This document shows, piece by piece, positions 5,527 through 19,540 of a DNA stretch of 40,000 nt. Source of the stretch: an uncultured Alphaproteobacteria bacterium (lineage in GTDB: Bacteria > Pseudomonadota > Alphaproteobacteria > ATCC43930 > CGMCC-115725); contig CAVPFL010000002.1 in the NCBI GenBank assembly GCA_963703745.1, positions 515,637 to 555,636 on the forward strand, written 5' to 3'. Under the pieces are notes generated by a model, which was not told the origin of the DNA, searched no databases, and was given only the letters and a program-made list of their open reading frames with translations. The stretch's first letter is position 1. Each line of letters starts with the position of its first letter. A program made the translations under genes and the position numbers.

Positions 5527-5547
5527 GTTTGATTGAAAAGGTTCGTC

Positions 5548-5990
5548 ATGAAAGTCGGCCTGTTCATCAACACGCAGTTCCCAGAGGGCTTCAACCTCGC
5601 AGAACGCGTCCCGGAGATGGTGGTACAGGTGCGCGCGGCGCGCGACGCTGGGTTCGCATCTCTCTGGTTCCCGCATCACTGGCTGACCCATCCGATGCAG
5701 ATGCTGCAGATCACGCCCGTGATGGGCTACGTTGCGGCGCACGCGCAGGGCATGACGATCGGTCCAAATATCCTGATCCTGCCGCCGCTCAATCCGGTGC
5801 ATGTGGCCGAGGAAGCCGCCACGCTCGACGTGTTGACCGGCGGCAACTACATCCTTGGCGTCGGCCTGGGCTATCGCCAGCCGGAATTCGACGCATTTGG
5901 CATTAGCCTCAGCGAGCGGGCGCCTCGGTTCAACGAGAGCATCGCCTTGATGCGTCGGCTGTGGACCGAGGAGCGGGTGAGCCACAAGGG
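5548..5990 (+). pseudogene. LLM-class (luciferase-like) flavin-dependent oxidoreductase, 5-prime fragment cut by the casposon insertion
   Basis: MKVGLFINTQFPEG...SLWFPHHW...LDVLTGGNYILGVGLGYRQPEF...RLWTEERVSHKG, after which the frame runs into TIR sequence. The rest of the gene resumes at 19527-20075. Confidence 0.88.
5977..5990. repeat. Left target-site duplication GTGAGCCACAAGGG
   Basis: An identical 14-mer occurs at 19527-19540, immediately outside the two TIR ends. The last G could belong to the TIR, so the TSD is 13 or 14 bp. Confidence 0.85.
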
Positions 5991-6127
5991 GGGGCCTCCC
6001 CACCACCACACCCTGGGGTCCCGCGAGAAGTAAGCCGTTGCCCCCCACAACCGGGACGCGAACTTGAGCGGAGCGAACGAGCGGAGCGAGCGCGACGAAG
6101 CGCAGCGAGATCGCACAAGGCTTTCTT

Positions 6128-6192
6128 ACTGGCGCAATAGATTGCAGCACTGGGAGCAGTGGAAATTCGCACTGGCGCAATAGATTGCAGCA
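6128..6192. repeat. 43-bp tandem unit in left TIR (one full copy plus a 22-bp partial)
   Basis: Unit ACTGGCGCAATAGATTGCAGCACTGGGAGCAGTGGAAATTCGC. The same unit is present five times plus a partial in the right TIR. Confidence 0.85.
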
Positions 6193-6270
6193 ACCAATAC
6201 ACTGGGCGCGCCGCTCGCAGTGGAAATCTCAGTAAAGCCGTTGATATTGCTGGGGTTGCAGTGCGGCTGC

Positions 6271-6376
6271 CACGGCAAGGCTCCGCCGGCGACCGCTGGG
6301 ATGTCTCGATCGAGCTCGGCGACCGCGAGGCCGGGGACCGGGCCGATCGCCACGGCAAGGCTCCGCCGGCGACCGC
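6271..6376. repeat. 80-bp unit, family B, left TIR (one full copy plus a 26-bp partial)
   Basis: CACGGCAAGGCTCCGCCGGCGACCGC recurs at 6271 and 6351. The right TIR has two full copies plus a partial (18888-19073). Confidence 0.8.
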
Positions 6377-6378
6377 TC

Positions 6379-6488
6379 GGGAGCCGCTGGCGTGCCCCTC
6401 GATCGCAGTCGAGGGCAGGCTCTGCCGGCCCTCGGGAGCCGCTGGCGTGCCCCTCGATCGCAGTCGAGGGCAGGCTCTGCCGGCCCAG
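6379..6488. repeat. 55-bp unit x2 in left TIR, each with a palindromic core CCCTCGA-TCGCAG-TCGAGGG
   Basis: GGGAGCCGCTGG starts at 6379 and 6434. Two copies are also present in the right arm (about 18776-18885). Confidence 0.8.
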
Positions 6489-7075
6489 CGGTCGCCGCAG
6501 CTGCCAGCCCGTGGCGATCGAGCGCGTCCCCTGCCTCGCGGTCGCCGGGCGCCGCCGAGGCTGCCCAGCGGGCGCCGCAGCTGCCAGCCCGTGGCGATCG
6601 AGCGCGTCCCCTGCCTCGCGGTCGCCGGGCGCCGTCGAGGCTGCCCAGCGGGCGCCGCAGCTGCCAGCCCGTGGCGATCGAGCGCGTCCCCTGCCTCGCG
6701 GTCGCCGGGCGCCGCCGAGGCTGCCCAGCGGGCGCCGCAGCTGCCAGCCCGTGGCGATCGAGCGCGTCCCCTGCCTCGCGGTCGCCGGGCGCCGTCGAGG
6801 CTGCCCAGCGGTCGCCGCAGCTGCCAGCCCGTGGCGATCGAGCGCGTCCCCTGCCTCGCGGTCGCCGGGCGCCGCCGAGGCTGCCCAGCGGGCGCCGCAG
6901 CTGCCAGCCCGTGGCGATCGAGCGCGTCCCCTGCCTCGCGGTCGCCGGGCGCCGCCGAGGCTGCCCAGCGGGCGCCGCAGCTGCCAGCCCGTGGCGATCG
7001 AGCGCGTCCCCTGCCTCGCGGTCGCCGGGCGCCGCCGAGGCTGCCCAGCGGGCGCCGCAGCTGCCCGCCCGTGCG
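6486..7075. repeat. 80-bp unit, family A, left TIR (seven full copies plus a partial)
   Basis: CAGCGG recurs at 6486, 6566, 6646, 6726, 6806, 6886, 6966 and 7046. Each unit has two polymorphic sites (G/T after CAGCGG; GC/GT before CGAGG). Confidence 0.9.
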
Positions 7076-7085
7076 ATTCGAGCCG

Positions 7086-7475
7086 CTATGTTTCATCGGA
7101 TACGGCGCCGGCGTTCGCGTAGGCGGCCTTGCAGAAGCGGTCGCGGCCGTTCAAAAATAGGATAAATATAGCCCTCTCCCCTAGCGAAAGGTGAGGCTGG
7201 GCGGTTTCCGAAACATGCGCAGTACAAGGTACCGATTGCGCGAAGAACCAGCTGTACACCAGCAAGTCGAGGCCGCTCGCGACGAACCCGAGCCCGTCAA
7301 CGAACACAAAGAGGAGCAATGCCCATCGCATGTGGTGGTGATCGAGCCGCTTGGGTGCGGCTGAACTGCGTAAGACCGGCGAAAAGCTCCACCAATCCAG
7401 ACGAATTTCCACGCGATACCGGCGATTGCGATCAAAGGTAAGCCGAACAATCAAAGCGAGCACAAGGCAAATCAT
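7086..7475 (-). CDS. Hypothetical small membrane protein; its C-terminus extends into the left TIR
   Basis: ATG at 7475 is preceded by AGGAGG at 6-nt spacing. Hydrophobic stretches MICLVLALIV and WALLLFVFVDGLGFVASGLDLLVYSWFF are present. The ORF ends ...AGAVSDET inside the TIR. No recognised family. Confidence 0.45.
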   Translation of the reverse strand: MICLVLALIVRLTFDRNRRYRVEIRLDWWSFSPVLRSSAAPKRLDHHHMRWALLLFVFVDGLGFVASGLDLLVYSWFFAQSVPCTAHVSETAQPHLSLGERAIFILFLNGRDRFCKAAYANAGAVSDET

Positions 7476-7501
7476 AGGGAGCCTCCTAAAAGGATCTGAT
7501 C

Positions 7502-7690
7502 CTAAAACGGATAATCCACGTTCGCCAGATGCGAGCGCGCGGAACAACCGCGAGGGTGGGGTGCGGGCACCGCGACGGATTGTAATCGCGTAAGTTGTGG
7601 AGGCGACGGCCCGTCATCGTACACAACCGGCATCACCGTCTTGCCATCCCAGCAGGGACAGCGCGGCCGTAAGAGATCGCCGCGCTTCAT
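7502..7690 (-). CDS. Hypothetical 62-aa protein, last member of a translationally coupled chain
   Basis: ATGA start/stop overlap with the upstream ORF at 7687-7690. No recognisable motifs. Confidence 0.3.
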   Translation of the reverse strand: MKRGDLLRPRCPCWDGKTVMPVVYDDGPSPPQLTRLQSVAVPAPHPRGCSARSHLANVDYPF

Positions 7691-7959
7691 TTCCGCTCCG
7701 CCTCTATCACCCTCAGCGTGGCCCGCGCGGAACGGATCAGCGAGCGATAAGCCGCCTTCTCGCCGCAGAAATCGACGCCATCGGCATAATATTCGGCATC
7801 GCTCTTCAGGTCGGCCAGGGCGGCGTCATCAAGTTCGACAACGGCGCGTCTTCCATCGTCACGGATGATCACGCGCTCGCCATCGTGATCGGAGCAGCGG
7901 TCATAGTGATCGCGCCAGAAGATGCCAGGCAGGATCAGGCGGCGCATCGTCATTTCCAT
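7687..7959 (-). CDS. Hypothetical 90-aa acidic protein
   Basis: The ORF overlaps both neighbours by a few nt. No recognised family. Confidence 0.45.
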   Translation of the reverse strand: MEMTMRRLILPGIFWRDHYDRCSDHDGERVIIRDDGRRAVVELDDAALADLKSDAEYYADGVDFCGEKAAYRSLIRSARATLRVIEAERK

Positions 7960-8171
7960 TCAGCCTGTCCGCGGCGCTGTGCCGCCTTGTTAATCGTCAC
8001 GGCACAATGCGGACACCAGTTGGCGTCTATCACGTCGCCCTCGGTCAGCGGCATGCCGCAGGGGATGTGCTCATACTCGGCATTTGCCGTTATGCGCCGC
8101 ATCTCCGCTATGTCGGCAGCCGGAATGGTTCTCACGTCCCGGTGCGGTCCTGCCTGAATGATGTAGATCAT
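7950..8171 (-). CDS. Hypothetical 73-aa protein with a possible Cys/His zinc-binding motif
   Basis: Starts MIYIIQAGPH at an ATGA overlap with the upstream ORF. Contains HIPCG ... WCPHC. The longer 115-aa version in the track is unlikely. Confidence 0.45.
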   Translation of the reverse strand: MIYIIQAGPHRDVRTIPAADIAEMRRITANAEYEHIPCGMPLTEGDVIDANWCPHCAVTINKAAQRRGQAEWK

Positions 8172-8311
8172 TGGCAGCCACTGGCGCGCGAGACGTGAAT
8201 AATCCAACTGCCGTCTGCTGCAGTAGATACCACTGGGTAAAGGTGAGACCAGCCCGCGAGATATACGGCCGCGAGAAAGACTATGACGAAGTGCCAAATT
8301 TTGCGGATCAT
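8168..8311 (-). CDS. Hypothetical 47-aa single-pass membrane peptide
   Basis: Read by hand: MIRKIWHFVIVFLAAVYLAGWSHLYPVVSTAADGSWIIHVSRASGCQ. ATGA overlaps at both ends. Below the ORF-track size cut-off. Confidence 0.4.
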   Translation of the reverse strand: MIRKIWHFVIVFLAAVYLAGWSHLYPVVSTAADGSWIIHVSRASGCQ

Positions 8312-8535
8312 GGCGCGCCCTCCGCGCGGATCAGAAGATCCACCAGCATCAAGTTGCGTTTCACTGCGGCGAGAGCCTTTGTGAGGTCGTCGCGCTCGAT
8401 CGCCAAGGTGAAATCGGCTCCTACCAGTGCGATTTCGTCCCGCAGCCGTTCTGCGAGCGGGACCAGCGGTTGGCGAAGATAGGGAGATGTGGATTGCGTC
8501 GGCTCGATCGAGCCGGTTAACGTGTCAAGGGACAT
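8308..8535 (-). CDS. Hypothetical 75-aa protein, first gene of the coupled chain
   Basis: The ORF has plausible coding composition and its stop overlaps the next start. No recognised family. Confidence 0.45.
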   Translation of the reverse strand: MSLDTLTGSIEPTQSTSPYLRQPLVPLAERLRDEIALVGADFTLAIERDDLTKALAAVKRNLMLVDLLIRAEGAP

Positions 8536-9032
8536 GGCTGCCTCTATCAGCTGTGTTCAAGTCGCTGTCGGACGTTCGCGCGTCCGGCAGCGGCGCCCTC
8601 CCCACAACGGGAGGGGCACGAATTCAGCGCTCGCGGCGGAGAAAAGTCAAGCGCGCGAAAGCGTTGAAGAGCGCTCTTTAAGCCTGCCCCGCACTGCGAT
8701 ACGGGGTCCGGACGCGCAAACGCGGAACAGTGCCCGCGTTCATCGTGCGTCGCAGCTCGTTTACCTTCTGAGCGCCCTTCCGTCCGCTGGCGCTTTGTTG
8801 TTCCGACGTTCGGGCTGCATTCGCAATCCGGGCGCCGGCGCTTCTTTGCTACGGGGTTCGGGACGCTTGCCCCTTCCGAGCGCGGGCGCTGAGTTGCTCA
8901 ACGGTAAGCTTCTTTGCTATTCCGCGTCGAAGGTTTTCACGCGCTCGCTGCGACGCTCTATCACGCTGCTCTATTGTACATAGAGCGGGCGCGCGGTTTC
9001 ATCGAATAAAAGATAGACGTATGGGAAACTTT

Positions 9033-9443
9033 TCATACCATGCGATGGCGCGGCCGTTGCTGTTGGCCCGGCTCTTTGGCGCCCGGCTCTGCGGCGGCTT
9101 TCGCGGGAGCAACGGGTTTCTCGCCATTGCCGGCCGGCGGCTTATCACCAGCCGGCGGCTTCTCGCCATTGCCAGCCGGCTTCTCGGCATTGCCGGCCGG
9201 CTTGTCCCCGGCCTTCGCCGGGGCAGGCTCGCCCGGCTTCTCACCATTGCCGGCCGGCTCAGGCTCACCATTGGTATGACGGTGGCGCCATAGCTCGGCA
9301 ATGCTGCGGTTGACGCCGCGCAATCCGCTCGCAACCGCCGCTTCGAGCCTGCCAATGCGCGTCTCTAACGCGTCGATTGCTGCGGCTCCGGCCTTCTCGG
9401 CAATGTCCAGCGCTTTGACGATTTCTGCGTCGAAATCAGCCAT
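9033..9443 (-). CDS. Hypothetical protein: helical N-terminus plus a Pro/Gly/Lys-rich repeat tail (PAGNGEKP-like units)
   Basis: Likely start MADFDAEIVKALDIAEKAG at 9443. The C-terminal half reads GNGEKPGEPAPAKAGDKPAGNAEKPAGNGEKPPAGDKPPAGNGEKPVAPAK. The underlying DNA shows imperfect short tandem repeats (9100-9280). Confidence 0.5.
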   Translation of the reverse strand: MADFDAEIVKALDIAEKAGAAAIDALETRIGRLEAAVASGLRGVNRSIAELWRHRHTNGEPEPAGNGEKPGEPAPAKAGDKPAGNAEKPAGNGEKPPAGDKPPAGNGEKPVAPAKAAAEPGAKEPGQQQRPRHRMV

Positions 9444-9678
9444 TACCGTTGCCTCGTAGCGCGTCGCGCAAGCCATCGGCAAACGCCGCACGTTGCGCGG
9501 TGCGAGCCGACTCCGCTGCAGTGAGTGCAGACTGACGCTCGAAATCGTATGATGCGGCAAGGCCACTGAGGAACCCGAGCATTGCACCTGCCTGACGGGG
9601 ATCACTGCAGGGGCATAGATCGGGATCAGTATCGAAAACTTGCCTGACATAGGCGAGAAACTGCAGAATTTCGTTCAA
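9436..9678 (-). CDS. Hypothetical 80-aa protein
   Basis: TTG start at 9678 is preceded by AAGGAGA at about 6 nt. The stop overlaps the start of the downstream repeat-protein gene. Confidence 0.4.
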   Translation of the reverse strand: MNEILQFLAYVRQVFDTDPDLCPCSDPRQAGAMLGFLSGLAASYDFERQSALTAAESARTAQRAAFADGLRDALRGNGNG

Positions 9679-9763
9679 GATCTTTCTCCTTAAAGACGAC
9701 AATAAACCTAACGCAGCATACCCTATGTTGTGCCGAGCGCGAACGCTTCCCATATCCCTATGT

Positions 9764-10057
9764 ATGTTTGAACAGACGCCTTCGCCGCTGTCGCAATGGC
9801 TGGCCTATCTCGGGATAGAGGCTGCCGTTCTCAGTCGGCGGCTAGGGTTGCATCATACCGCCGTCCGGATGGCTGCTATTCGCGGCTCGCGGCGATGCAG
9901 CTGGCTCCGGGAAGCCGAGCTATTGCTCTCCGTTCCCGCGCGCGTGCTCGTCTCGATCCCGCCGAACGATCCTCGTACGGCGCGCTATCGGGGCGAGGCT
10001 CTCATTGCAGCGGCGGAATGCCGTCTGCGCGATTTGCTGCGCGATCGAGCCTCTTGA
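9764..10057 (+). CDS. Small putative helix-turn-helix DNA-binding protein
   Basis: MFEQTPSPLSQWLAYLGIEAAVLSRRLGLHHTAVRMAAIRG resembles a Cro/CI-like HTH. Transcribed divergently from the 9678 gene. Confidence 0.45.
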   Translation: MFEQTPSPLSQWLAYLGIEAAVLSRRLGLHHTAVRMAAIRGSRRCSWLREAELLLSVPARVLVSIPPNDPRTARYRGEALIAAAECRLRDLLRDRAS

Positions 10058-10119
10058 CAATCGGAGAGATGCTTAGATATAAGCATGGGTCTAGCGTCGA
10101 TTTTAATTGGGTTCCTACC

Positions 10120-10533
10120 ATGCCAAAAACTACTCCCGCCCGCCGCGCTTCAAACCGCGAAAGTCAGAAGAAATTTCGCGAGGAAAAAGCGCGCGGGGGT
10201 ATCGTTCCTTGCACGGTTTGGGTTCCGCGCGACCGTTGCCCGGAATTGCGTGCGCTCGCCGAATTGCTCTGTTCCGATCGCGATTTGATGGTAGGTCCGG
10301 CTCGCTCTATCGAGACTGGTAGGCAAGTGTCTCGCCGGCAGTCGGCTCGCGTTCAATTTCTATACATGGGAGCGGCTTGGTCTTGCACGGCTAAAACGCT
10401 GGAAGCGCTGCACAAAGCAATCGATGCTGATAAACCGATCGAGTTGGAGCAATTCCCTGACGTACGACAAATTGCTCGCGCTGCTCCCGGTACAAAACCG
10501 CTGGTAGGTGAAACGCTTCGCTACGATCGTTGA
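10120..10533 (+). CDS. Hypothetical 137-aa protein with a basic N-terminus
   Basis: MPKTTPARRASNRESQKKFREEKARGG... No family recognised. Confidence 0.45.
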   Translation: MPKTTPARRASNRESQKKFREEKARGGIVPCTVWVPRDRCPELRALAELLCSDRDLMVGPARSIETGRQVSRRQSARVQFLYMGAAWSCTAKTLEALHKAIDADKPIELEQFPDVRQIARAAPGTKPLVGETLRYDR

Positions 10534-10536
10534 ACC

Positions 10537-10821
10537 CTAATCCGCAGCTTCCATCATTGCGCTGCGGCTCCCGAGGCTCTTTTTCTGCGCACTCCGCAGA
10601 ACTCTGCGTCGCTGCGGCTCGGGAGGCTCATGACGCTCTATACCGATATGCTGCGCCATCGCTTCCAGTGCGAGCCGCACTGAGACTATCCTCCGCTCCG
10701 CCAGCTGCGGCGCCAGCGGCAGCCTCCATGCCGCGGGATCGAGCCCGCGGGAAAGCCAACGCAGGAAAACCAATTGCTCGGGAACGCTTCTCGGCAGATC
10801 GTGCCCGCCCGGAACGTACAT
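10537..10821 (-). CDS. Hypothetical 94-aa protein
   Basis: The ORF starts 10 nt after the stop of the upstream gene on the same strand. No motifs recognised. Confidence 0.3.
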   Translation of the reverse strand: MYVPGGHDLPRSVPEQLVFLRWLSRGLDPAAWRLPLAPQLAERRIVSVRLALEAMAQHIGIERHEPPEPQRRRVLRSAQKKSLGSRSAMMEAAD

Positions 10822-10830
10822 CGCAACCCC

Positions 10831-11673
10831 TTAGCCGTATGCCGGCTGACGCGGTCGTACCTTTAGGGCAACTGGTCCGATCGGTCGAGCCGGTTGCGGT
10901 CGTAGCCGGCTCATATCGACGCGCGAATGCGCCGGACAATATACATCGCCCAGTTGTGCGACGGGACAGCCGCAGAACGAGGGCGCCAGCTGCCCGCCGT
11001 CGAGACGCGTCATTGCCGGCATCGCGCATGCGCGCCCAAAGAGAACGCCCGGAAACACGTCTGCATATAAGGTCCACGCGCCCGGTAGGCTGGCGCCTAT
11101 GGGCAATGCGATACGAGAAGCCTGCCCCTGCGGTATGACGGCGGGAAGATTTATCGTCTCGCCATCAAGTCCTGCCCCGTGCGGAGCCTGCCCCGTGCTG
11201 CGACACGGGGACACGGGGGCGGGACCGGGGAGCCCGTCCTCGAGATAATCGCCCCGCGCGAGCCGGGACAGCGGCTCGAAAACTTTAACGAGAACTCCGA
11301 TGATGCCTCCGGACGCGGGAGCCTCGGCAGCATCGGCTTCGACGTCAACCCACGGCTGCTTAGCCTCGATCGTCAGCGGGTCGACCGTGTTGCGAGCGGT
11401 TTCCCGAGCTTGCCGCGCTTCGCGCTTCTCGGCTTTGGTGCGTCGCTTGCCGATCGAGGCTTTGGGAATGCCGGCTGCAGCTGGGGACCAGCGCTTGCCG
11501 CTTTGTGAGCGAGTGGAAAGCTTCTCGATCGCAGGGAAGTACTTTTCGGGGATCGGACGTTTGCCGCTAGTCCAATGCCGCAGCTGATCGGCAGAACAGC
11601 CTATTTCGGACGCAGCGGAAAAACTGGTGTGACCGCGGGATCGCAACAGCGCGCGAAGTTCATCCTTTGTCAT
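10831..11673 (-). CDS. HTH DNA-binding protein with a GcrA-like Cys-rich C-terminal motif
   Basis: N-terminus FSAASEIGCSADQLRHWTSGKRPIP looks like an XRE/Cro HTH. C-terminus CAMP...FCGCPV...YCPAHSR resembles the CxWP...FCG...YCxxH signature of GcrA-type regulators. Confidence 0.55.
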   Translation of the reverse strand: MTKDELRALLRSRGHTSFSAASEIGCSADQLRHWTSGKRPIPEKYFPAIEKLSTRSQSGKRWSPAAAGIPKASIGKRRTKAEKREARQARETARNTVDPLTIEAKQPWVDVEADAAEAPASGGIIGVLVKVFEPLSRLARGDYLEDGLPGPAPVSPCRSTGQAPHGAGLDGETINLPAVIPQGQASRIALPIGASLPGAWTLYADVFPGVLFGRACAMPAMTRLDGGQLAPSFCGCPVAQLGDVYCPAHSRVDMSRLRPQPARPIGPVALKVRPRQPAYG

Positions 11674-11805
11674 GCTCGGATAAATGGTCGCGCGTATGAC
11701 CGATTTCAGCGGCCGGACGCAGTCAAAAGCTTGTGCTCGCGCAAGCGAGTAGCGAATGCGATCAATCGATAAGGGGATATGCGATCAAGCCGCGACCAGC
11801 TTAGT

Positions 11806-12384
11806 CTAAGCCGCGATCCGATCGAAATCGACACCGTGCTGTGCGGCGAGCCTGCGATAGCGTTCTGCCTGTTCAACCGAGAGAGGCAGGTTCCCCGTTT
11901 CGGCGCGGCGGACAACGGACTCGCGAAGATCGAGCTTTGCGGCGAGTGTCGCTTGCGTGAAGCCGAGCGACTTGCGCAGCTTCAAGAGTGCAGCCGGGGG
12001 AGGGACAGCCGTAAGCTCCCTCGTTCCTTGGGCGCCCATCCAATGAACGAGTTTTTCGACGGCTGCCTGTGAGACGGGGTTACGGCCGATTTCCCATTGC
12101 GCGACGGATTGCTGCGCGACGCCACAAATTTCCGCGATCCGGGATTGTGTCAAACCGAGCGACTGGCGCAGATCCCGCAAGACGGGACCGGCTGCCTCTT
12201 TGCGGCGCAGTAGCGGCATCAACGCTGGAATGTCTTTGGGCGTTACGAAACCCATCTGTCGCGCTTTGCGACTGATCCGAGGCTCGATTTCCTCGGCTCG
12301 TTCCTTCAGCGCAAACGCACGGTCGTAATCGCCCGCTGTAAGAGCGGCTGCAGCATCGGTCAAGAGTTTGCTCGCTTCTATCAT
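11806..12384 (-). CDS. Tandem XRE-family HTH repressor-like protein (two Cro/CI HTH domains)
   Basis: Likely start MIEASKLL at 12384. It has two units: LRQSLGLTQSRIAEICGVAQQSVAQWEIGRNPVS and LRKSLGFTQATLAAKLDLRESVVRRAETGNLPLS. Transcribed divergently from the replication/integration operon. Confidence 0.75.
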   Translation of the reverse strand: MIEASKLLTDAAAALTAGDYDRAFALKERAEEIEPRISRKARQMGFVTPKDIPALMPLLRRKEAAGPVLRDLRQSLGLTQSRIAEICGVAQQSVAQWEIGRNPVSQAAVEKLVHWMGAQGTRELTAVPPPAALLKLRKSLGFTQATLAAKLDLRESVVRRAETGNLPLSVEQAERYRRLAAQHGVDFDRIAA

Positions 12385-12389
12385 GACAG

Positions 12390-12416
12390 TTGTAACCGTC
12401 TCTTCCGTGCTATAAT
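12390..12416 (+). promoter_or_regulatory. Candidate sigma70-type promoter for the pPolB-HNH-cas1 operon (TTGTAA-N15-TATAAT)
   Basis: TTGTAA at 12390-12395 and TATAAT at 12411-12416. The first ATG of the operon is at 12424, so the transcript could be leaderless. Sequence inspection only. Confidence 0.35.
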
Positions 12417-12423
12417 TCCCCAC

Positions 12424-13128
12424 ATGATGCCACAAAAATTTTCCCCCGCACAAGATCTAGTGCAAAATCAAGCCTTTGCCTCCCGCCCGACCGGGGCAAA
12501 AGGGCAAATCGGCGGGACCGAGGCTCTACCCGATTCGTCGATTTCGCTCGCTGCGACGGGAACGGCTCACTTCTCGCAGCACGGGACAGGCATCGCGCCT
12601 GCCTTGCTTGCCGCGGTCGAGGATATCCGCTGGCGGGAATTGTTCGCCCAAGCGCGGCAAGCGCTGTCACCCGAGACGCTCGCAGAGCTAGGCGGGCTTT
12701 TGGATCATCCTGACGCCTACGATCCCGAACGCCGCGACGAAGTGCGCCAATCGCTCGAAAGGCTGATCGATACCGAGCGGCGGATCGCCGCACGGATTGC
12801 CGAGCAACGCTCCGACATTGCCGAGATGGCGGAACTGATACACGCGGAGCACGAGGCTGGTCGCGCATATCGGCGCACGGTTCGCGAGGCTTACCGCCGA
12901 CATTCCGAAGCCGAGCGGCTCGAAACCGAGCGGCGCGAAGCCGAGCGGCTCGCGGCAATCCGCCGGGTCGCCGTAGCGCAGGCTGCCCGCGACGAAAGGT
13001 CGCGGGCGGAGCGGCGGAAAGCCGACAAAGAACTGCGGCGAATTGACGCAGAGCGGCGCGCTAAAGAGCGAGCCGAGCGACAGCGCCAGCGGCTCGCTGC
13101 GTGGCCACGCAAACAGGCGTTCGCCTAA
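12424..13128 (+). CDS. Hypothetical protein with a highly charged Arg/Glu-rich C-terminal half
   Basis: 234-aa ORF that is the first gene of the plus-strand operon. C-terminus reads ERLETERREAERLAAIRR...ERRKADKELRRIDAERRAKERAERQRQR. Confidence 0.5.
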   Translation: MMPQKFSPAQDLVQNQAFASRPTGAKGQIGGTEALPDSSISLAATGTAHFSQHGTGIAPALLAAVEDIRWRELFAQARQALSPETLAELGGLLDHPDAYDPERRDEVRQSLERLIDTERRIAARIAEQRSDIAEMAELIHAEHEAGRAYRRTVREAYRRHSEAERLETERREAERLAAIRRVAVAQAARDERSRAERRKADKELRRIDAERRAKERAERQRQRLAAWPRKQAFA

Positions 13129-13796
13129 TGGCTCGCTCCCGTCGCACCTCCCGCGAGACGCTGCAGCGCCAGCGCCAGCGACAACGCGAGCGTTCGGCGC
13201 GGGATCGCGCTCGCGAAGCCGCTGCAAAAGAGACGCTGTCGGCTTCAAAGGCTGCATCGCAACGCAGCGCCCGCGAGCACTTGTTCACAGCTGCGCGCGC
13301 ACGGACGCAAGCGATTAAAGCCGGCCGGCATGGATTGCCTGAAGCTGCAGCCCTACTGCGCGAAACAGCTGCCGAGCAAGTCCGCCTGCAACGAGAAGCC
13401 GAACGCGGCGCTGCAGCCGATAGGCGCTGGCTCAAATCGCTCGTTACTCCCGCCAAGCGTCGGACGACCTACCAGCGGCGGGTTGCCAGCGGTGCGGTGC
13501 GGCAGGTTGAACGGGAGCGCGCAACTCGTGCAGCAGTCCAGTCGCAACTTCCGCCCGAATGGCCTCCTGCCAATTGGCAGCGCGACAAGTTCCGCGACCG
13601 CTTCTCTTATGCATGGTGGCTGGGATATTCGCGGCAGGATGCCAGCCTTCCGGCAAAGTTTCTAATGGAGCCGTTCGAAGTACAGCTTGACGCGATGGAC
13701 GACGCAAGACTTGCGCATATTCAATGGCTGCAGAACAAGCGGGAAGATTTAGGATTGGAAGACACGGAATATCGCAGCTATCACACAAACGGCTAA
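13128..13796 (+). CDS. Hypothetical 222-aa basic protein immediately upstream of pPolB
   Basis: The start overlaps the previous stop (TAATG). Arg-rich N-terminus MARSRRTSRETLQRQRQRQRERSARDR. Trp/Tyr-rich C-terminal region SYAWWLGYSRQD...IQWLQNKRED. No family recognised. Confidence 0.5.
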   Translation: MARSRRTSRETLQRQRQRQRERSARDRAREAAAKETLSASKAASQRSAREHLFTAARARTQAIKAGRHGLPEAAALLRETAAEQVRLQREAERGAAADRRWLKSLVTPAKRRTTYQRRVASGAVRQVERERATRAAVQSQLPPEWPPANWQRDKFRDRFSYAWWLGYSRQDASLPAKFLMEPFEVQLDAMDDARLAHIQWLQNKREDLGLEDTEYRSYHTNG

Positions 13797-13800
13797 GCCT

Positions 13801-16107
13801 ATGCTCGATCAAGCTGGCGAGATTACTTTCGGATATCCCGATGATTACTTTTGGGAATTGACCGAAGTTGATCGAGGCAATCCCGGACTGGTCGCCAAGC
13901 GCTGCAAGCGCTGCGCGCGCGCGGAACAGGCGATCGAGCTATGGTTCGAAGGCGAGCGCAAGCGGGATGCGCGTTGCCCATTGTGCGGCGCCATCGTCCA
14001 CAACCAAAACCGACATAAGGGACCGGACTTGCGCTCGCGCAAAGGCGATCGTCACAAGTCGGGTAGGAAAGATCCCCGCTACAATACGGCCGATCGCGCG
14101 ACGGCTCCGTTCATCGCCATCGACGGCGAGGGCGCGGGAACCAACGAGCATGGCCAGCAGAATTACTTATACATGGCCACTTGCGACGTGAGCGGCGAAG
14201 TAATATCAGAGCTCTTCGAAGACAATCGAGCGCTCTCGACAAAAGAATGTTTGGAATATATTCTGAAACTTCCAAAGCATAAGCTGATTGTCGGGTTTCA
14301 TTTCGACTATGACGTAACGATGATTTTACGAGATCTACCAATCAAACAACAAAGAAGACTATTCCTGCCTTTGCCACGGAGAAACAATCCTAATAATGAA
14401 GAATGTGCGTTCTATACCTACTGGCAGGATTACGCCATCCAATACATTCCCTACAAGCATTTGATGGTCTCGCGCCGAATAGATCGCAACGTCAATCAAA
14501 ACATTCCGGAGACTACCCGCACAATCAACTTTGTTCAAGGGTACTTCTCCGGCGGATTAGTTGACGTTGCTCAGTCTTGGTGTGGTCTCGATGCGTGCTC
14601 GATTGCCGAACTTGAAAAGATGAAAGCGGCGCGACCGTCTTTCGAAAGCATAACACCGGAAATCAAAAGCTATTGTCAAAAAGAATGCCAGTATCTCGCC
14701 GTGGCAATGCATAAGTTCCGCGAGATCGTACTCGCGGGCAACGCTGCGCTACAAGAGCGCTTGCCGAACGTCAGCCTGATACCGCGCGATTGGCAGGGAC
14801 CGGGACCAATGACGCAGCGCTTGCTCGCGAGCCTCGGCATACCAAAGCGAGACGACCTCCCCGAGCATGATCCCGAATTCATGGAAGCGGCGCGAGCAAG
14901 CTTCTCCGCCGGCCGGACTGAGATCGCCCTAACCGGCCGGATCGATGGTCCGGTCTATGCCTATGACTTGAACTCGGCTTACCCTGCAGCGATCCTGCAG
15001 CTACCATGTCAGCGGCATACCCGCTGGTGCAAGGTGACAGAGCCGGCTCCCGGATCGCTCTATTTCGCCCGGCTCAGCTGGAAGCAACCGGCTCGATCCC
15101 GCTGGGGTGCGTTTCAGGTACGCTCGAAATTCCAAACCCTGTTCGCGCCGCTCTCCGGAGCGGGCTGGTATTGGTCGCCTGAGATCGAGGCTGCAGGCAA
15201 GCTGCGCGCCAAGGTACAGTTGCATGAGATATGGCAAGCCGAGAGATGCTGCGATTGCCATCCTTTCGCGGCGATCAAATCGATTTATGACTACCGCAAG
15301 TCGCTCGATAATGACCAGCTAGAATATCCGATCAAACTTGTGTTGAACACCCTTTACGGCAAGTTCTCGCAAAGAATAGGTGCGGCGCCTTACTATGATC
15401 CGATTGCCGCGGGATTAATTACCTCGATCGTTCGCTCACGGCTGATCGAGGCGATCAGTCTCGATCCCGAGGCAGTCATAATGGTTGCGACCGATGCAGT
15501 CTATTCGACGCGTCCGCTTGCGCTCGAAATCGACAAGCAGTTAGGACATTGGAAATTAACGAAGCATCTGGCCGGAGCGTTCGTTGTTCAACCGGGCGTA
15601 TGGTGGCCACTGTCCGAAGCATCGGGAATGTTTGACCACAAAACCCGCGGCATTCCTCAGCGAGCTATTGTGCCAATGGTAGATCAATTCTATGACGCAT
15701 GGGACCAATACATACGTTTTACTAGTTCTAAATACTCTCCGAACATCGAAGATTTAGGACAACCTACTGTTGAGATACCCTATCAAGTCTTTATTCCTTT
15801 GAAGCTGTCGCTGCATCCCGAAATGCTGATGCTGTATAAGATCGATCCTGCGTCGGCGCGTTCCGGTCAATGGATCGAGCGCAAGCATCCAGTCCGCTTC
15901 AACTGGCGCACAAAACGGCGCCTTGGCGGCTGCACTCTGCAAGACGGACACGTCAAGCATTGGCCTTATCCCGATATGGACGGGGAGAGCGGCACGGCTT
16001 TTGATGGGGCGGAGCTAGATCGATTGATGGCATGGCAGAACGAAACCGAGTATGCTTATCCCGACAGCGGCTATTCGCCGCTCGATTTCATCCCGAAACC
16101 CGAGTGA
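13801..16107 (+). CDS. Family B DNA polymerase, protein-primed type (pPolB)
   Basis: 768 aa. Exo motifs FIAIDGEG (DxE) and HFDYD. Polymerase motif A YAYDLNSAYPAA (DxxSxYP), motif B KLVLNTLYGKFSQ (Kx3NSxYG-like), motif C MVATDAVYS (DTD-like). Confidence 0.88.
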   Translation: MLDQAGEITFGYPDDYFWELTEVDRGNPGLVAKRCKRCARAEQAIELWFEGERKRDARCPLCGAIVHNQNRHKGPDLRSRKGDRHKSGRKDPRYNTADRATAPFIAIDGEGAGTNEHGQQNYLYMATCDVSGEVISELFEDNRALSTKECLEYILKLPKHKLIVGFHFDYDVTMILRDLPIKQQRRLFLPLPRRNNPNNEECAFYTYWQDYAIQYIPYKHLMVSRRIDRNVNQNIPETTRTINFVQGYFSGGLVDVAQSWCGLDACSIAELEKMKAARPSFESITPEIKSYCQKECQYLAVAMHKFREIVLAGNAALQERLPNVSLIPRDWQGPGPMTQRLLASLGIPKRDDLPEHDPEFMEAARASFSAGRTEIALTGRIDGPVYAYDLNSAYPAAILQLPCQRHTRWCKVTEPAPGSLYFARLSWKQPARSRWGAFQVRSKFQTLFAPLSGAGWYWSPEIEAAGKLRAKVQLHEIWQAERCCDCHPFAAIKSIYDYRKSLDNDQLEYPIKLVLNTLYGKFSQRIGAAPYYDPIAAGLITSIVRSRLIEAISLDPEAVIMVATDAVYSTRPLALEIDKQLGHWKLTKHLAGAFVVQPGVWWPLSEASGMFDHKTRGIPQRAIVPMVDQFYDAWDQYIRFTSSKYSPNIEDLGQPTVEIPYQVFIPLKLSLHPEMLMLYKIDPASARSGQWIERKHPVRFNWRTKRRLGGCTLQDGHVKHWPYPDMDGESGTAFDGAELDRLMAWQNETEYAYPDSGYSPLDFIPKPE

Positions 16108-16120
16108 CGCAATCGCGCTG

Positions 16121-16717
16121 ATGTCCGGCTCCCCTGTCGACCGATTCCGCCGCGCCGCTGCAACACGGCTCGATCACTATGCAATCCTCCACCCGCAGTG
16201 TGTCTATTGCGGCGACGCTGTAATGTCGCGCATGCGCGGCAGTGGCGAGACACGGCATTATGATCATTTTATACCGATCGAGATTATCATTCGCGCTCGC
16301 GAAGCATATCCACTGCAGCGATTTCCGAACTGTCTATTGCCGTGCTGTCGCCGCTGCAACGGCTTTGCCGGATCGTTCTACTTCTCGATATTATCTAAGA
16401 AATTCAACTACTTACAGTGGAAAATCGGCGATTACGAGCCCCGCTTGCGAGCGCGCGTCGCGGCAATCGTTCTGCAGAAATTCAGCGGGCTTGAAGTACC
16501 GCAAGCGCTCGCCGATATCGTGCACCCAATGGAAGAATTCCGCGACGGCGATTATCCTATATTGGAGCCAGTGCGTCTCGATAATGGAAACTGGTCTATT
16601 GCGCAAGAACTCGCGGAAAGGGCGCTTGCACTGCAATGGAATTCTCAGACACCAATTTCGGAGCCGTCAAAAACGGCGTGCTCGTTCTCTCCGGATTTAG
16701 AATTCGTGTCAGGGTAG
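16121..16717 (+). CDS. HNH endonuclease
   Basis: CVYCGD...HYDHFIPIE...NCLLPCCRRCN matches the CxxC...H-N-H...CxxC architecture. Located between pPolB and cas1. Confidence 0.78.
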   Translation: MSGSPVDRFRRAAATRLDHYAILHPQCVYCGDAVMSRMRGSGETRHYDHFIPIEIIIRAREAYPLQRFPNCLLPCCRRCNGFAGSFYFSILSKKFNYLQWKIGDYEPRLRARVAAIVLQKFSGLEVPQALADIVHPMEEFRDGDYPILEPVRLDNGNWSIAQELAERALALQWNSQTPISEPSKTACSFSPDLEFVSG

Positions 16718-18060
16718 AAGCGGGCGCGCTCGTTGTGCAAGACGGAATAAAGGGAGCCGAGATCGAGCGGCGCTTTCCGCGCGCCAGCTGTCCGGTCTCG
16801 CGATTGATCGCAGTGCAGCCGGAAGGCATTATCACGTTCGCTGCGCTGCGCTGGCTCCACAATGTAGGCGCTTCGTTCGTTCAACTCGACTATGACGGAA
16901 CGCCTATCGCGACCAGCTTGCCGCGGGGCACTGTTCCGGCTGCACTGCGGCGAACGCAAGCGCTCGCCTCGATTGAGACGCGACTCGGCAAGGCTATTGC
17001 TCATAGTCTCATTAGGGCGAAGATCGCGGCGCAAATCGCGACGCTGCGCAGTTGCGACCGCGACGCAACTGCAATCAGCGCCTTTGCAAATGAGTTGCAG
17101 TCTCGCGCCAGCATGCTCGAATTACTGGGCACCGAGGGCAATGCATCCGCCGTCTATTGGCAAGCGCTGGCGAACGTGCCGCTGCAGTTCGGAAAGCGCC
17201 AATCCCCGGATCAAGTCCGGGGAGTTCCCGAGCATTGGCGAGTGTTCGGCTCCCGCACGTCTAGCATGACTGGCGCGCCGCGCGGCGCGCCAGTCATGCT
17301 AGACGTGACTGGCGCGCCGCGCGGCGCCGTTGTCCCCGCGCAAGCCGTGCTGAATTACCTCTATGGCGTGCTCGCCAGCGAGATCACCATAGCGTTGCAC
17401 GCGGCCGGTCTCGATCCCGCGTTGGGCATACTGCACGCGGATAAAGTCGGCGGGACTTCGCTCGCTTATGACTTGATGGAACCCGCGCGACCGCTTCTCG
17501 ACCGCTGGCTGTTGCACTGGCTGCAGACTGCGACGTTTTCGAAGCGCGATTTCCGCGAAGACATTTACGGCTTTATCCGGGTGACGCATCCGCTGACTTC
17601 GCACCTTGCAATGACTGCGGCATTGTGGCGCGGGATCGCAGAGCAACTGGCGGAGTGGATCTATCGGCGGTTGAACGGAGAGAACGCGGCTCTTCGATTG
17701 ATTGGTGTCGATTGGCTTTCATCCGAGGCAAGGCGCCGCGCAGTTCGCTGGCGTCTCGGGCACACGATGCAGCGGCCGGTTCCCGCGACATGCGCGGAAT
17801 GCGGTAAGGCTCTTCCGAAAGGGAGACGGCGGTTTTGCTCGGGAGATTGTATGAGGGCATGGCACGGCGAAGTTCTGACGACTGCCGGCATGCTCGCAAT
17901 CTCCCGCCTTTCTCCCGCCGCCCGTTCCGACCGTTCCCGCCGCTCCGCCCTCTCGCGATCACCCGAGGCACGGCGCGAGGCTGCGCGGACTGCGGCAAGG
18001 GCTCGCTGGGCGCGACGTGCGGTCGCGGTCGCGGGCGCCGTATCCGATGATGAAACATAG
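16636..18060 (+). CDS. cas1: Cas1-family integrase (casposase) with a C-terminal Cys4 zinc-ribbon/FCS-like extension
   Basis: The N-terminal beta domain is Cas1-like (VLSGFRIRVRVEAGALVVQDG...ITFAALRWLHNVGASFVQLDYDG). Catalytic-region motifs are LLGTEGNASAVYWQAL (Glu) and ILHADKVGGTSLAYDLMEPARPLLDRW (His, Asp/Glu). The C-terminus has CAECGKALPKGRRRFCSGDC. The stop lies 5 nt before the right TIR. Confidence 0.88.
   Translation: MEFSDTNFGAVKNGVLVLSGFRIRVRVEAGALVVQDGIKGAEIERRFPRASCPVSRLIAVQPEGIITFAALRWLHNVGASFVQLDYDGTPIATSLPRGTVPAALRRTQALASIETRLGKAIAHSLIRAKIAAQIATLRSCDRDATAISAFANELQSRASMLELLGTEGNASAVYWQALANVPLQFGKRQSPDQVRGVPEHWRVFGSRTSSMTGAPRGAPVMLDVTGAPRGAVVPAQAVLNYLYGVLASEITIALHAAGLDPALGILHADKVGGTSLAYDLMEPARPLLDRWLLHWLQTATFSKRDFREDIYGFIRVTHPLTSHLAMTAALWRGIAEQLAEWIYRRLNGENAALRLIGVDWLSSEARRRAVRWRLGHTMQRPVPATCAECGKALPKGRRRFCSGDCMRAWHGEVLTTAGMLAISRLSPAARSDRSRRSALSRSPEARREAARTAARARWARRAVAVAGAVSDDET
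17259..17304. repeat. Perfect 46-bp palindrome inside cas1, followed by a third partial copy (17307-17327)
   Basis: GTCTAGCATGACTGGCGCGCCGC|GCGGCGCGCCAGTCATGCTAGAC, checked base by base. Encodes the duplicated peptide MTGAPRGAPVMLDVTGAPRGA. Confidence 0.95.
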
Positions 18061-18109
18061 CGGTCGCGAACGCCGGCGCCGTATCCGATGAAACATAGCG
18101 GCTCGAATC

Positions 18110-18780
18110 GCACGGGCGGGCAGCTGCGGCGCCCGCTGGGCAGCCTCGGCGGCGCCCGGCGACCGCGAGGCAGGGGACGCGCTCGATCGCCACGGGCTGG
18201 CAGCTGCGGCGACCGCTGGGCAGCCTCGGCGGCGCCCGGCGACCGCGAGGCAGGGGACGCGCTCGATCGCCACGGGCTGGCAGCTGCGGCGCCCGCTGGG
18301 CAGCCTCGACGGCGCCCGGCGACCGCGAGGCAGGGGACGCGCTCGATCGCCACGGGCTGGCAGCTGCGGCGACCGCTGGGCAGCCTCGACGGCGCCCGGC
18401 GACCGCGAGGCAGGGGACGCGCTCGATCGCCACGGGCTGGCAGCTGCGGCGACCGCTGGGCAGCCTCGGCGGCGCCCGGCGACCGCGAGGCAGGGGACGC
18501 GCTCGATCGCCACGGGCTGGCAGCTGCGGCGCCCGCTGGGCAGCCTCGACGGCGCCCGGCGACCGCGAGGCAGGGGACGCGCTCGATCGCCACGGGCTGG
18601 CAGCTGCGGCGCCCGCTGGGCAGCCTCGACGGCGCCCGGCGACCGCGAGGCAGGGGACGCGCTCGATCGCCACGGGCTGGCAGCTGCGGCGCCCGCTGGG
18701 CAGCCTCGGCGGCGCCCGGCGACCGCGAGGCAGGGGACGCGCTCGATCGCCACGGGCTGGCAGCTGCGGCGACCGCTGGG
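18110..18780. repeat. 80-bp unit, family A, right TIR (eight full copies plus a partial)
   Basis: CCGCTGGG recurs every 80 bp, with its last base at 18140, 18220 and so on up to 18780. The order of the two polymorphic sites differs from the left arm. Confidence 0.9.
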
Positions 18781-19151
18781 CCGGCAGAGCCTGCCCTCGA
18801 CTGCGATCGAGGGGCACGCCAGCGGCTCCCGAGGGCCGGCAGAGCCTGCCCTCGACTGCGATCGAGGGGCACGCCAGCGGCTCCCGAGCGGTCGCCGGCG
18901 GAGCCTTGCCGTGGCGATCGGCCCGGTCCCCGGCCTCGCGGTCGCCGAGCTCGATCGAGACATCCCAGCGGTCGCCGGCGGAGCCTTGCCGTGGCGATCG
19001 GCCCGGTCCCCGGCCTCGCGGTCGCCGAGCTCGATCGAGACATCCCAGCGGTCGCCGGCGGAGCCTTGCCGTGGCAGCCGCACTGCAACCCCAGCAATAT
19101 CAACGGCTTTACTGAGATTTCCACTGCGAGCGGCGCGCCCAGTGTATTGGT

Positions 19152-19388
19152 TGCTGCAATCTATTGCGCCAGTGCGAATTTCCACTGCTCCCAGTGCTGC
19201 AATCTATTGCGCCAGTGCGAATTTCCACTGCTCCCAGTGCTGCAATCTATTGCGCCAGTGCGAATTTCCACTGCTCCCAGTGCTGCAATCTATTGCGCCA
19301 GTGCGAATTTCCACTGCTCCCAGTGCTGCAATCTATTGCGCCAGTGCGAATTTCCACTGCTCCCAGTGCTGCAATCTATTGCGCCAGT
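19152..19388. repeat. 43-bp tandem unit in right TIR (partial plus five full copies)
   Basis: GCGAATTTCCACTGCTCCCAGTGCTGCAATCTATTGCGCCAGT repeated from 19174 to 19388. Confidence 0.9.
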
Positions 19389-19526
19389 AAGAAAGCCTTG
19401 TGCGATCTCGCTGCGCTTCGTCGCGCTCGCTCCGCTCGTTCGCTCCGCTCAAGTTCGCGTCCCGGTTGTGGGGGGCAACGGCTTACTTCTCGCGGGACCC
19501 CAGGGTGTGGTGGTGGGGAGGCCCCC

Positions 19527-19540
19527 GTGAGCCACAAGGG
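19527..19540. repeat. Right target-site duplication GTGAGCCACAAGGG
   Basis: Identical to 5977-5990. Confidence 0.85.

Follow-up and report, generated by a model that had tools for sequence, protein, structure and literature searches.

We analysed a window of 40,000 nucleotides from an uncultured alphaproteobacterium (contig CAVPFL010000002.1 of assembly GCA_963703745.1, positions 515,637 to 555,636), which contains a casposon of 13.5 kb (5990-19526; all coordinates refer to the window). From repeat analysis and comparison with related elements, we conclude that the two long, repetitive arms of this element are almost certainly casposon terminal inverted repeats (TIRs) with amplified, lineage-conserved modules. 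Each end module is amplified in tandem, and unequally on the two sides, which makes this element the most expanded member of a lineage in which the copy number of the major repeat unit ranges from 1 to 8.5. On balance, and with considerable caution, we favour the explanation that these TIRs were expanded by tandem amplification of end modules which we infer to serve as protein-binding sites.

A preliminary description of this stretch, made from the letters alone, had taken the arms for casposon TIRs, and this is borne out by a Cas1 and a family B DNA polymerase (PolB) encoded in the interior, a 13-bp target-site duplication and the restoration of a host open reading frame (ORF) on removal of the element. 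Identical copies of GTGAGCCACAAGG were found by direct-repeat search at 5977-5989 and 19527-19539 (13 bp, or 14 bp counting the next G). They lie within a plus-strand gene for a luciferase-like monooxygenase, of which the 5' part occupies 5533-5989 and the 3' part 19540 to approximately 20072; deletion of 5990-19539 yields a Bac_luciferase ORF of 325-330 amino acids that matches PF00296 over its full length (E 1.6e-52). Because GTGAGCCACAAGG flanks the arms and removal restores the coding sequence, we conclude that the element was inserted recently into the monooxygenase gene with a 13-bp, possibly 14-bp, target duplication.

The casposase gene (16636-18060, plus strand) was identified by domain search and encodes a Cas1 with a C-terminal zinc ribbon, without the helix-turn-helix (HTH) tail of many relatives. 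The protein matches PF01867 (E 1.4e-36) and TIGR00287 (110 bits, cut-off 71.7), and its best match among solved structures is the Methanosarcina mazei casposase 6OPM. All columns that are invariant across 36 Cas1 homologues, including E167, H267, D269 and D279, are present. The polymerase gene (13801-16107, plus strand) has PF03175 as its only Pfam match (34.5 bits, cut-off 25.8) and also matches phrog_11768 (E 3.5e-31). An AlphaFold (AF2) model built from 38 homologues reached a predicted local distance difference test score of 81, and in a Foldseek search the top nine matches in the PDB were phi29 polymerase (E ~1e-16, template-modelling score ~0.6), compared with E ~1e-11 and a score of 0.35 for archaeal PolBs. 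On the predicted structure, therefore, the polymerase is of the phi29-like, protein-primed type. The element thus has the features of the casposon superfamily, namely a Cas1 with catalytic residues, a family B polymerase, and TIRs flanked by a target-site duplication.

Repeat finding and base-by-base segmentation delimit two colinear inverted arms, the left at 5990-7119 (1130 bp) and the right at 18065-19526 (1462 bp). The right arm and the end point of the left arm had been placed correctly before; the left arm starts at 5990 and not at 5991. Copy numbers are given as assembled, for the sequence of the whole window, with units delimited by Tandem Repeats Finder and segmentation. From the outside inwards, the left arm (plus strand) begins with a unique terminus of 138 bp (6127 being its last base) that starts with GGGGGCCTCCCCACCACCAC and is 100% identical to the right terminus. 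It is followed by 1.5 copies of a 43-bp unit (6128-6191; one full copy plus 21 bp, from segmentation and tandem repeats) and by a 78-bp spacer (6192-6269) with degenerate CACTGG/GCAGTG motifs and the final bases GGGGTTGCAGTGCGGC. Then come 1.35 copies of an 80-bp family B unit (6270-6377; unit profile matches on the plus strand, E 1e-16), two copies of a 55-bp hairpin unit (6378-6485), seven full copies of an 80-bp family A unit (6486-7045), each with two GCGGTCGCCG-type cores, and, by segmentation, 74 bp comprising a degenerate last A unit and the inner edge (7046-7119). The minus strand of this last segment codes for the C-terminus ...AGAVSDET* of the ORF at 7086-7547.

The right arm (minus strand) repeats this order, again from the outside inwards: the unique terminus of 138 bp (19389-19526, from inverted-repeat finding and segmentation), 5.5 copies of the 43-bp unit (19153-19388; five full copies plus 21 bp, from tandem repeats and segmentation), the 78-bp spacer (19075-19152, segmentation), 2.35 family B units (18887-19074, tandem repeats and unit profile), two 55-bp hairpin units (18779-18886, tandem repeats and segmentation), eight full family A units (18139-18778, tandem repeats and unit profile), and 74 bp of inner edge and degenerate A unit (18065-18138, segmentation). 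Counting the degenerate end units, family A is present in 7.5 copies on the left and 8.5 on the right. The four repeat families thus stand where the preliminary description had put them, and their unequal copy numbers account, as it had claimed, for the whole length difference between the arms (332 bp = 4 × 43 + 80 + 80). Tandem units make up 78% of the left and 83% of the right arm, and three arrays are unequal between the arms.

The repeats are specific to the arms. The window contains 30 copies of the core GCGGTCGCCG, against an expectation of 0.83, and 29 of these copies lie within the arms, which excludes a chance origin; the window occurrences of GCAATNNATTGC and GGAAATTCGCACTGG are confined to the arms. 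Every 43-bp unit contains the palindrome GCAAT-AG-ATTGC and CACTGG/GGAAATTC motifs. Motif searches of the window found no copies of the arm motifs in the element interior, which speaks against regulatory operators; motifs confined to the arms are more in keeping with a role in recognizing the ends than in regulating genes. A search of 5900-7700 for a promoter in the left arm gave no sigma-70-like site. Long ORFs traverse the arrays in all frames and were considered as coding sequence. They were treated as artefacts of high GC content, since 80, 55 and 43 bp are not multiples of three and the frame rotates from unit to unit. The target site itself (GAGCCAC--AAGGGCC, 5977-5995) loosely resembles the B-unit boundary TCGCCACGGCAAGGCTCC (6345-6365), perhaps by chance in GC-rich DNA.

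Two features go beyond the preliminary description. The units of family B are homologous to those of family A in reverse complement (approximately 72-74% identical), and the inner TIR edge on the right carries a 41-bp tandem duplication (18019-18101, plus strand), the first copy of which provides the present stop codon of cas1.

The differences between the arms lie in the number and order of whole units. Outside the A array, no mismatch between arms was found at 570 comparable positions. The A units are mutually 97.5-100% identical, and their variation is confined to unit positions 7 (G/T) and 70 (C/T), with all four combinations present. As described before, the order of these variants differs between the arms: h1 h2 h3 h2 h1 h3 h3 on the left, and h1 h2 h2 h3 h4 h4 h3 h1 on the right. 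With no substitutions and only copy-number and unit-order differences, the asymmetry arose after the arms were last homogenized, in agreement with the earlier proposal. The perfect identity outside the arrays, the whole-unit differences in three arrays and the reshuffled variants further suggest that slippage and exchange outpace point mutation. We propose that the arrays would grow and shrink by replication slippage and by unequal or inter-arm recombination, much faster than they acquire point mutations.

Such an asymmetry could also be produced by errors of assembly or consensus, with the arrays being real and the arms identical in the cell, and the G/T and C/T pattern having the same origin. 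Assembly is difficult where near-identical units of 43 to 80 bp follow one another within a perfect inverted repeat of 1.1 kb, and an exact-protein look-up gave no second assembly of the locus. We nevertheless regard this explanation as improbable. A contig of approximately 1.97 Mb runs through both arms, and as repeats of this kind usually interrupt an assembly of short reads, this suggests spanning reads. The differences concern three independent arrays and in each case amount to whole units, as biology rather than noise would predict. In addition, five other data sets yielded, by independent assembly, homologous arrays of different lengths.

The comparison with homologous elements, proposed earlier as a check on the arrays, came out in their favour: relatives carry a homologous unit at 1 to 6.2 copies. 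A profile of the approximately 80-bp unit matched only in the closest relatives, here designated L001, L167, L127, L164 and L002. In L001 (Cas1 70% identical), approximately 1.4 unit copies directly follow the cas1 stop codon. L167 (Cas1 78%, truncated) has approximately 1.6 copies and L127 (Cas1 78%) has 2.3 copies of 81 bp, both followed by a cluster of CCAGTG/GGAAATTT motifs. L164 (Cas1 69%) has 6.2 copies of 81 bp, which are approximately 85% alike with a higher-order period of 161 bp, and a motif cluster outside the array. For L002 (CAWCOH010000001.1; Cas1 66-73%) and the more distant L005 (CAVYZU010000010.1; Cas1 52%), only right ends were compared. L002 has one degenerate unit copy, then dispersed motifs including CTATTGCGCCAGTGCGAAT, which is also found in the 43-bp unit of the window element, and the terminus GGATGGTGGTGGGGGGTGGGCC; its cas1 stop codon lies approximately 315 bp from the terminus, compared with 1466 bp in the window. 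In L005 no unit was found; this element shares the terminal motif ...GGTGGTGGCCGGAGGTCCCCC and has two CGCACTGCGCAATA motifs 43 bp apart. A terminal motif (GGTGGTGG..GGAGG.CCCCC, right-end strand) is common to the window element, L002 and L005, and the spacer block ...GCAGTAAA...GGGGTTTGCAGTG is conserved in L164 and L127.

The end modules, from the outside inwards, are a G5/CCACCACC terminus, a cluster of CACTGG, GCAAT..ATTGC and GGAAATTC motifs, and a GC-rich unit of approximately 80 bp with two GCGGTCGCCG cores. Their order is conserved as terminus, motif cluster, GGGGTTTGCAGTG block, 80-bp unit or units, and interior. As the relatives carry the same modules in the same order with varying copy numbers, mostly one or a few, the arrays are a real, copy-number-unstable trait of this lineage. 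Among approximately 80 related genome loci, mostly from Acidobacteria and with a Cas1 33-40% identical to that of the window, the inverted repeats that bracket Cas1 measure 35-499 bp and contain no arrays. Longer candidates were discarded: a 988-bp inverted repeat at L040 is a pair of Ser/Thr kinase paralogues, and kilobase-scale repeats at L048, L051 and L073 do not bracket Cas1 or have low identity.

The units appear to be under cis-acting constraint, for four reasons. First, they are as conserved as coding sequence: unit identity between elements is 70-87% (50-72% for the outlying L127 unit), comparable to the nucleotide identity of cas1 (72-84%), and the remaining, non-coding arm sequence gave no BLAST alignment between elements. 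Second, the invariant unit columns cluster in the blocks CAGCGGTCGCCG, CCGTGG and CGGTCGCC (permutation p = 0.012). Third, the array of L164 keeps its period of 80-81 bp with 2% indels despite a unit divergence of approximately 15%. Fourth, L164 and L167 are reduced elements without polB that have retained the 80-bp units and the motif cluster. Binding sites, which the preliminary description had suggested, are thus a plausible role for the units. In the mechanism that we favour, the modules would be cis-acting sites at which an element-encoded protein recognizes and pairs the ends for excision and integration, and they might also help the phi29-like polymerase to start replication. Candidate end-binding proteins are the casposase, through its zinc-ribbon region, and an Xre-type protein with a double HTH (11806-12453, minus strand; HTH_3, E 5e-16), which has homologues in L002, L005, L167 and the metagenome contig that carries P0002 (11,138 bp; JGI 3300050821). 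Extra sites may be tolerated, or mildly favoured through a higher avidity for the end-binding protein.

The same four observations speak against the arrays being functionless satellite DNA, in which slippage-prone TIR sequence expanded neutrally and the conservation reflects shared ancestry and concerted evolution. This is the main rival and a serious possibility, if a doubtful one, given that the copy number varies from 1 to 8.5 among relatives and is unequal between the arms of one element. Several points weigh against the binding-site explanation, and the near-identity of the A units, the lack of structure in single units, the sufficiency of one copy and the short in-vitro substrates also favour satellite DNA. 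The near-identity of the A units indicates a recent amplification, which fits neutral expansion equally well, and the GCAAT..ATTGC site is the only palindrome or other special structure in single units. The cores within a unit are spaced at approximately 50 and 30 bp, which does not correspond to an integral number of helical turns. Since relatives manage with a single copy, a high copy number is not required, and casposases need only short terminal sequences in vitro, where their substrates can be very short (PMC6977970). Finally, judging from its sequence, the casposase lacks the HTH tail, so this copy may be non-autonomous.

A variant of the binding-site explanation holds that in this lineage the end DNA next to cas1 is inherently prone to form direct-repeat arrays of modules recognized by the casposase or an HTH protein, and that these arrays are functional, setting the avidity or asymmetry of the ends or titrating the binder in an iteron-like copy control. 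Taken together with the CRISPR arrays that directly follow cas1 at L031 and L094, two loci of the same Cas1 clade, the lineage could then offer living intermediates in the process by which repeat arrays became associated with a casposase. We consider this variant unlikely, though worth stating.

The arms might instead act as structure, the foldback or the long TIRs forming hairpins or panhandles in single-stranded DNA that promote excision or function as a replication origin. Single strands would arise on the lagging strand or through strand displacement by the phi29-like polymerase. As family B is inverted relative to family A, each arm has a strong internal foldback, which consists of the inverted partial copy of the 80-bp array (B) and the two 55-bp hairpin units at its centre. 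As single-stranded DNA, the B-55x2-A segment is predicted to fold into one long hairpin (-139.5 kcal/mol, compared with -108.3 ± 4.3 kcal/mol for shuffled controls; z = -7.3), although any inverted duplication folds strongly by construction. The PolB is of the strand-displacing phi29 type, and the published casposon model invokes stem or panhandle intermediates of the TIRs, with internal palindromes in some of them (PMC4046053). At the level of the units, the results were negative: single units fold no better than their shuffles (z = +0.56, +1.42, -1.38 and -1.15), RNAalifold found no covariation within units, and an Rfam scan of the window gave no family within the arms, which together rule out the units as structured RNA or DNA. 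No inverted copy of type B was seen in the available sequence of L164, L127, L001, L167 and L002, in which the units have one orientation; the foldback therefore looks specific to the window element. We judge it rather improbable that structure is what the arms are for.

Since the A array begins approximately 80 bp after the cas1 stop codon, and the right TIR 4 bp after it, we also considered that the arrays are a CRISPR-like or proto-CRISPR array, or the remains of one. Two loci of the same Cas1 clade, L031 and L094, have true CRISPR arrays directly after cas1. The units of the window element, however, abut head to tail without spacers, measure 80 bp compared with 24-47 bp for CRISPR repeats (PMC4779613), and give no Rfam CRISPR-DR match in the window, and the same arrays stand inverted at the opposite end of the element, which is 10 kb away from cas1. 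Lacking spacers and forming symmetrical TIRs, the arrays effectively refute this idea, to which we assign only a negligible probability.

The two CRISPR-bearing loci merit a description of their own. At L031 (5333-7823 of JBEKQY010000380.1, a metagenome-assembled genome (MAG) of Ca. Korobacteraceae), a CRISPR array starts 25 bp after the cas1 stop codon and runs to the contig end, with a 36-nt repeat, unique spacers of approximately 30 nt and at least 15 repeats. Its Cas1 has a casposase-type C-terminal tail, a pPolB-type polymerase of 967 amino acids is encoded upstream, and L146, a locus with no array, matches the PolB and Cas1 regions of L031 at 80-82% nucleotide identity. No Cas2 was found among the ORFs tested at L031. 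At L094 (320-2203), a Cas1 that is 42% identical to the window casposase and has a zinc-ribbon end is followed after approximately 270 bp by a CRISPR array, the repeats of which match Rfam CRISPR-DR16 above the gathering score; this array extends to the end of the 2.2-kb contig. Both arrays may lie inside a casposon or merely beside one.

TIRs of this kind are unusual for casposons, as the preliminary description had supposed. Published casposon TIRs measure 25-602 bp with a median of 56 bp, the maximum being that of AceAut-C1 (PMC4046053), and those of M. mazei casposons measure 31-59 bp, or 225 bp in family 4 (PMC4779613). At 1.1 and 1.5 kb, the window arms are approximately twice the published maximum, and tandem arrays in TIRs are not described for any casposon in the published accounts examined, including these two. 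The reference casposase sequences came from the supplementary data of Krupovic et al. 2014; families 2 and 4 were represented only by 6OPM, in the structural comparison. In BLASTP searches against four reference casposases, the window Cas1 matched three family 3 members best (28-33% identity, E 1e-30 to 1e-39), compared with 24% identity (E 4e-16) for the family 1 casposase of N. koreensis.

By these matches, the window Cas1 is closest to family 3 (StrAlb-C1, NitAL212-C1, HenMar-C1 and AceAut-C1; Krupovic et al. 2014, 2016). The likeness extends to the bacterial host, the HNH and HTH genes, the size of 13-20 kb, the target-site duplication (13-14 bp here, 14 bp in NitAL212-C1 and 15 bp in AceAut-C1), TIRs that start with a G/C run, and a C-terminal zinc-binding region of Cas1 as in AceAut-C1. 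However, the polymerase is phi29-like and not of the RNA-primed (archaeal PolB3-like) type of family 3, the TIRs of 1130 and 1462 bp are built of arrays whereas those of family 3 measure 36-602 bp, and the element interrupts an ORF, in contrast to the family 3 elements described so far, which are all intergenic (PMC4779613). A protein-primed PolB defines the thaumarchaeal family 1, families 2 and 3 having a PolB of RNA-primed type (PMC4046053, PMC4779613). With family 1 (Nitrosopumilus) the window element shares this polymerase type and the combination of TIR and target-site duplication. It differs from family 1 in its bacterial context, the hosts of that family being archaeal, in the low identity of Cas1 (24%), and in the C-terminal zinc ribbon, since family 1 Cas1 proteins have no extra domains. 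Moreover, family 1 elements have TIRs of approximately 70 bp and target the EF-2 gene, and the published description of HNH proteins covers all casposons of families 2 and 3 but not those of family 1 (PMC4046053). On the features tested, the window element fits no described casposon family cleanly, and a bacterial casposon lineage with a phi29-like polymerase appears to be undescribed.

Similar end architectures are known outside the casposons. The ends of Tn7 (three TnsB sites on the left and four on the right) and of Mu consist of several reiterated transposase-binding sites. As in the window element, these sites lie internal to the cleaved terminus and differ in number and arrangement between left and right; they differ in being few, approximately 20-30 bp long and not in perfect tandem arrays, and in serving DDE transposases rather than Cas1. 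By analogy, these multi-site, asymmetric ends would be the closest functional counterparts of the window arms. In architecture, the arms resemble Foldback and Galileo of Drosophila, for which excerpts of PMC4168063 and PMC4079207 describe long TIRs made of tandem repeats. Those TIRs are likewise of kilobase size, with copy numbers that vary between copies and arms, and have internal foldback potential, but they belong to eukaryotic elements with an unrelated transposase, so that the likeness is architectural only. The window arms are long, consist mainly of tandem repeats and have unequal copy numbers, as in a Foldback-type architecture; no homology is implied.

The preliminary description had also likened the arms to the iteron-like ends of protein-primed linear replicons, and this likeness is reasonable given the polymerase but holds only loosely. 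The window element shares with such replicons (phi29, PRD1, adenovirus and linear plasmids) a phi29-like polymerase and inverted terminal repeats, and with PRD1 a homopolymer terminus, here 5'-GGGGG, which would suit sliding-back initiation as in PRD1. It differs in being integrated with a target-site duplication and in that no terminal protein was recognized by sequence; family searches gave no match for the ORFs at 12424-13128 and 13101-13796 or for the first 100 residues of PolB, which are disordered. To our knowledge, there are no 80-bp arrays at the ends of protein-primed replicons, whose origins are located at the very termini. Plasmid iterons, repeats of approximately 20 bp in tandem, bind a Rep protein and thereby control replication; the units here measure 80 bp, and a Rep protein is absent from the window element. 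Evidence for an iteron-like role would be indirect, namely the conserved unit cores and the confinement of the motifs to the arms. Terminal proteins are usually encoded directly upstream of polB. The two ORFs in 12424-13796 are arginine-rich, lie directly upstream of polB and are partly conserved in L002 and L163.

The interior further encodes a probable HNH endonuclease (16052-16717, plus strand), recognized by CxxC...HYDH...CCRRCN motifs and a weak HNH PHROG match (E 0.009) and 58% identical to its homologue in L001, as well as a second HTH-like protein. The polB gene has a lower GC content (0.525-0.54) than the rest of the element (0.60-0.63), and in relatives with a Cas1 of 70% and an HNH protein of 58% identity, PolB reaches only 34-45% identity. 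This divergence and composition suggest that the polymerase module may have been exchanged between elements. No relatives of the Cas1 were found in a viral contig collection, which was searched for free or viral forms.

Rearrangement also appears to have affected the inner borders of the TIRs. Many relatives share a conserved C-terminal tail (...PHPRLIRQLA...) that is missing from the window casposase, in which approximately the last 55 residues are of low complexity and end in the 41-bp duplicate of the inner TIR edge. What is left of such a tail, the degenerate sequence TYAITIRRGARTPPSRLFRALAS, stands inverted at the left end (7527-7595, minus strand), fused to the minus-strand ORF 7086-7547, whose own C-terminus the TIR edge likewise encodes. 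This indicates that the inner borders of the TIRs were rearranged in the past, and the TIR may ancestrally have extended into cas1. We considered that the casposase is crippled by the loss of its HTH tail, and softened this view because short, tail-less Cas1 proteins also occur in L002 and L162/P0003, so that the loss may be a trait of a sub-lineage rather than a defect. A deltaHTH mutant of the M. mazei casposase is inactive (PMC6977970), and an excerpt of PMC8464041 describes an HTH-less family 1 casposase as active.

Among the related loci, the L002 contig (an uncultured Alphaproteobacteria MAG) contains two decayed related right ends, 2.8 kb apart (8150-8650 and 10001-11500). One consists of a solo cas1 fragment with a complete end, the other is interrupted by an IS5-like transposase gene, and both are reminiscent of the tandem or solo-TIR remnants described for M. 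mazei. The cargo of L164 (1-5297) and L167 (1-5025) includes genes with DUF5677 and RES domains, and L164 and L127 both adjoin a TPR-repeat gene, possibly a shared target. In a wider search, related genes for a Cas1 33-40% identical to that of the window (loci L006-L081 and L099-L161) proved very common in MAGs of soil Acidobacteria/Terriglobia and in metagenomes, with 104 genome matches and at least 430 metagenome matches, and no description of this abundant soil group was found in the published literature searched. PF03175-type polymerases related to the window PolB are numerous in public assemblies, and PolB was confirmed directly at few of the Cas1 loci.

Casposons have been proposed as the ancestors of the module for CRISPR adaptation, and the recognition of their ends is little understood; only a few terminal bases are needed in vitro, and published TIRs are short. 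The natural variants of this lineage, with 1 to 8.5 units, form an allelic series with which the binding specificity of casposases or of their HTH partners could be examined, and the GCGGTCGCCG cores and the GCAAT..ATTGC and CACTGG motifs supply candidate binding sites. The window element joins a family-3-like casposase with a phi29-like polymerase, a combination outside the four described families, and the Cas1 relatives of this group appear to be abundant in soil Alphaproteobacteria and Acidobacteria.

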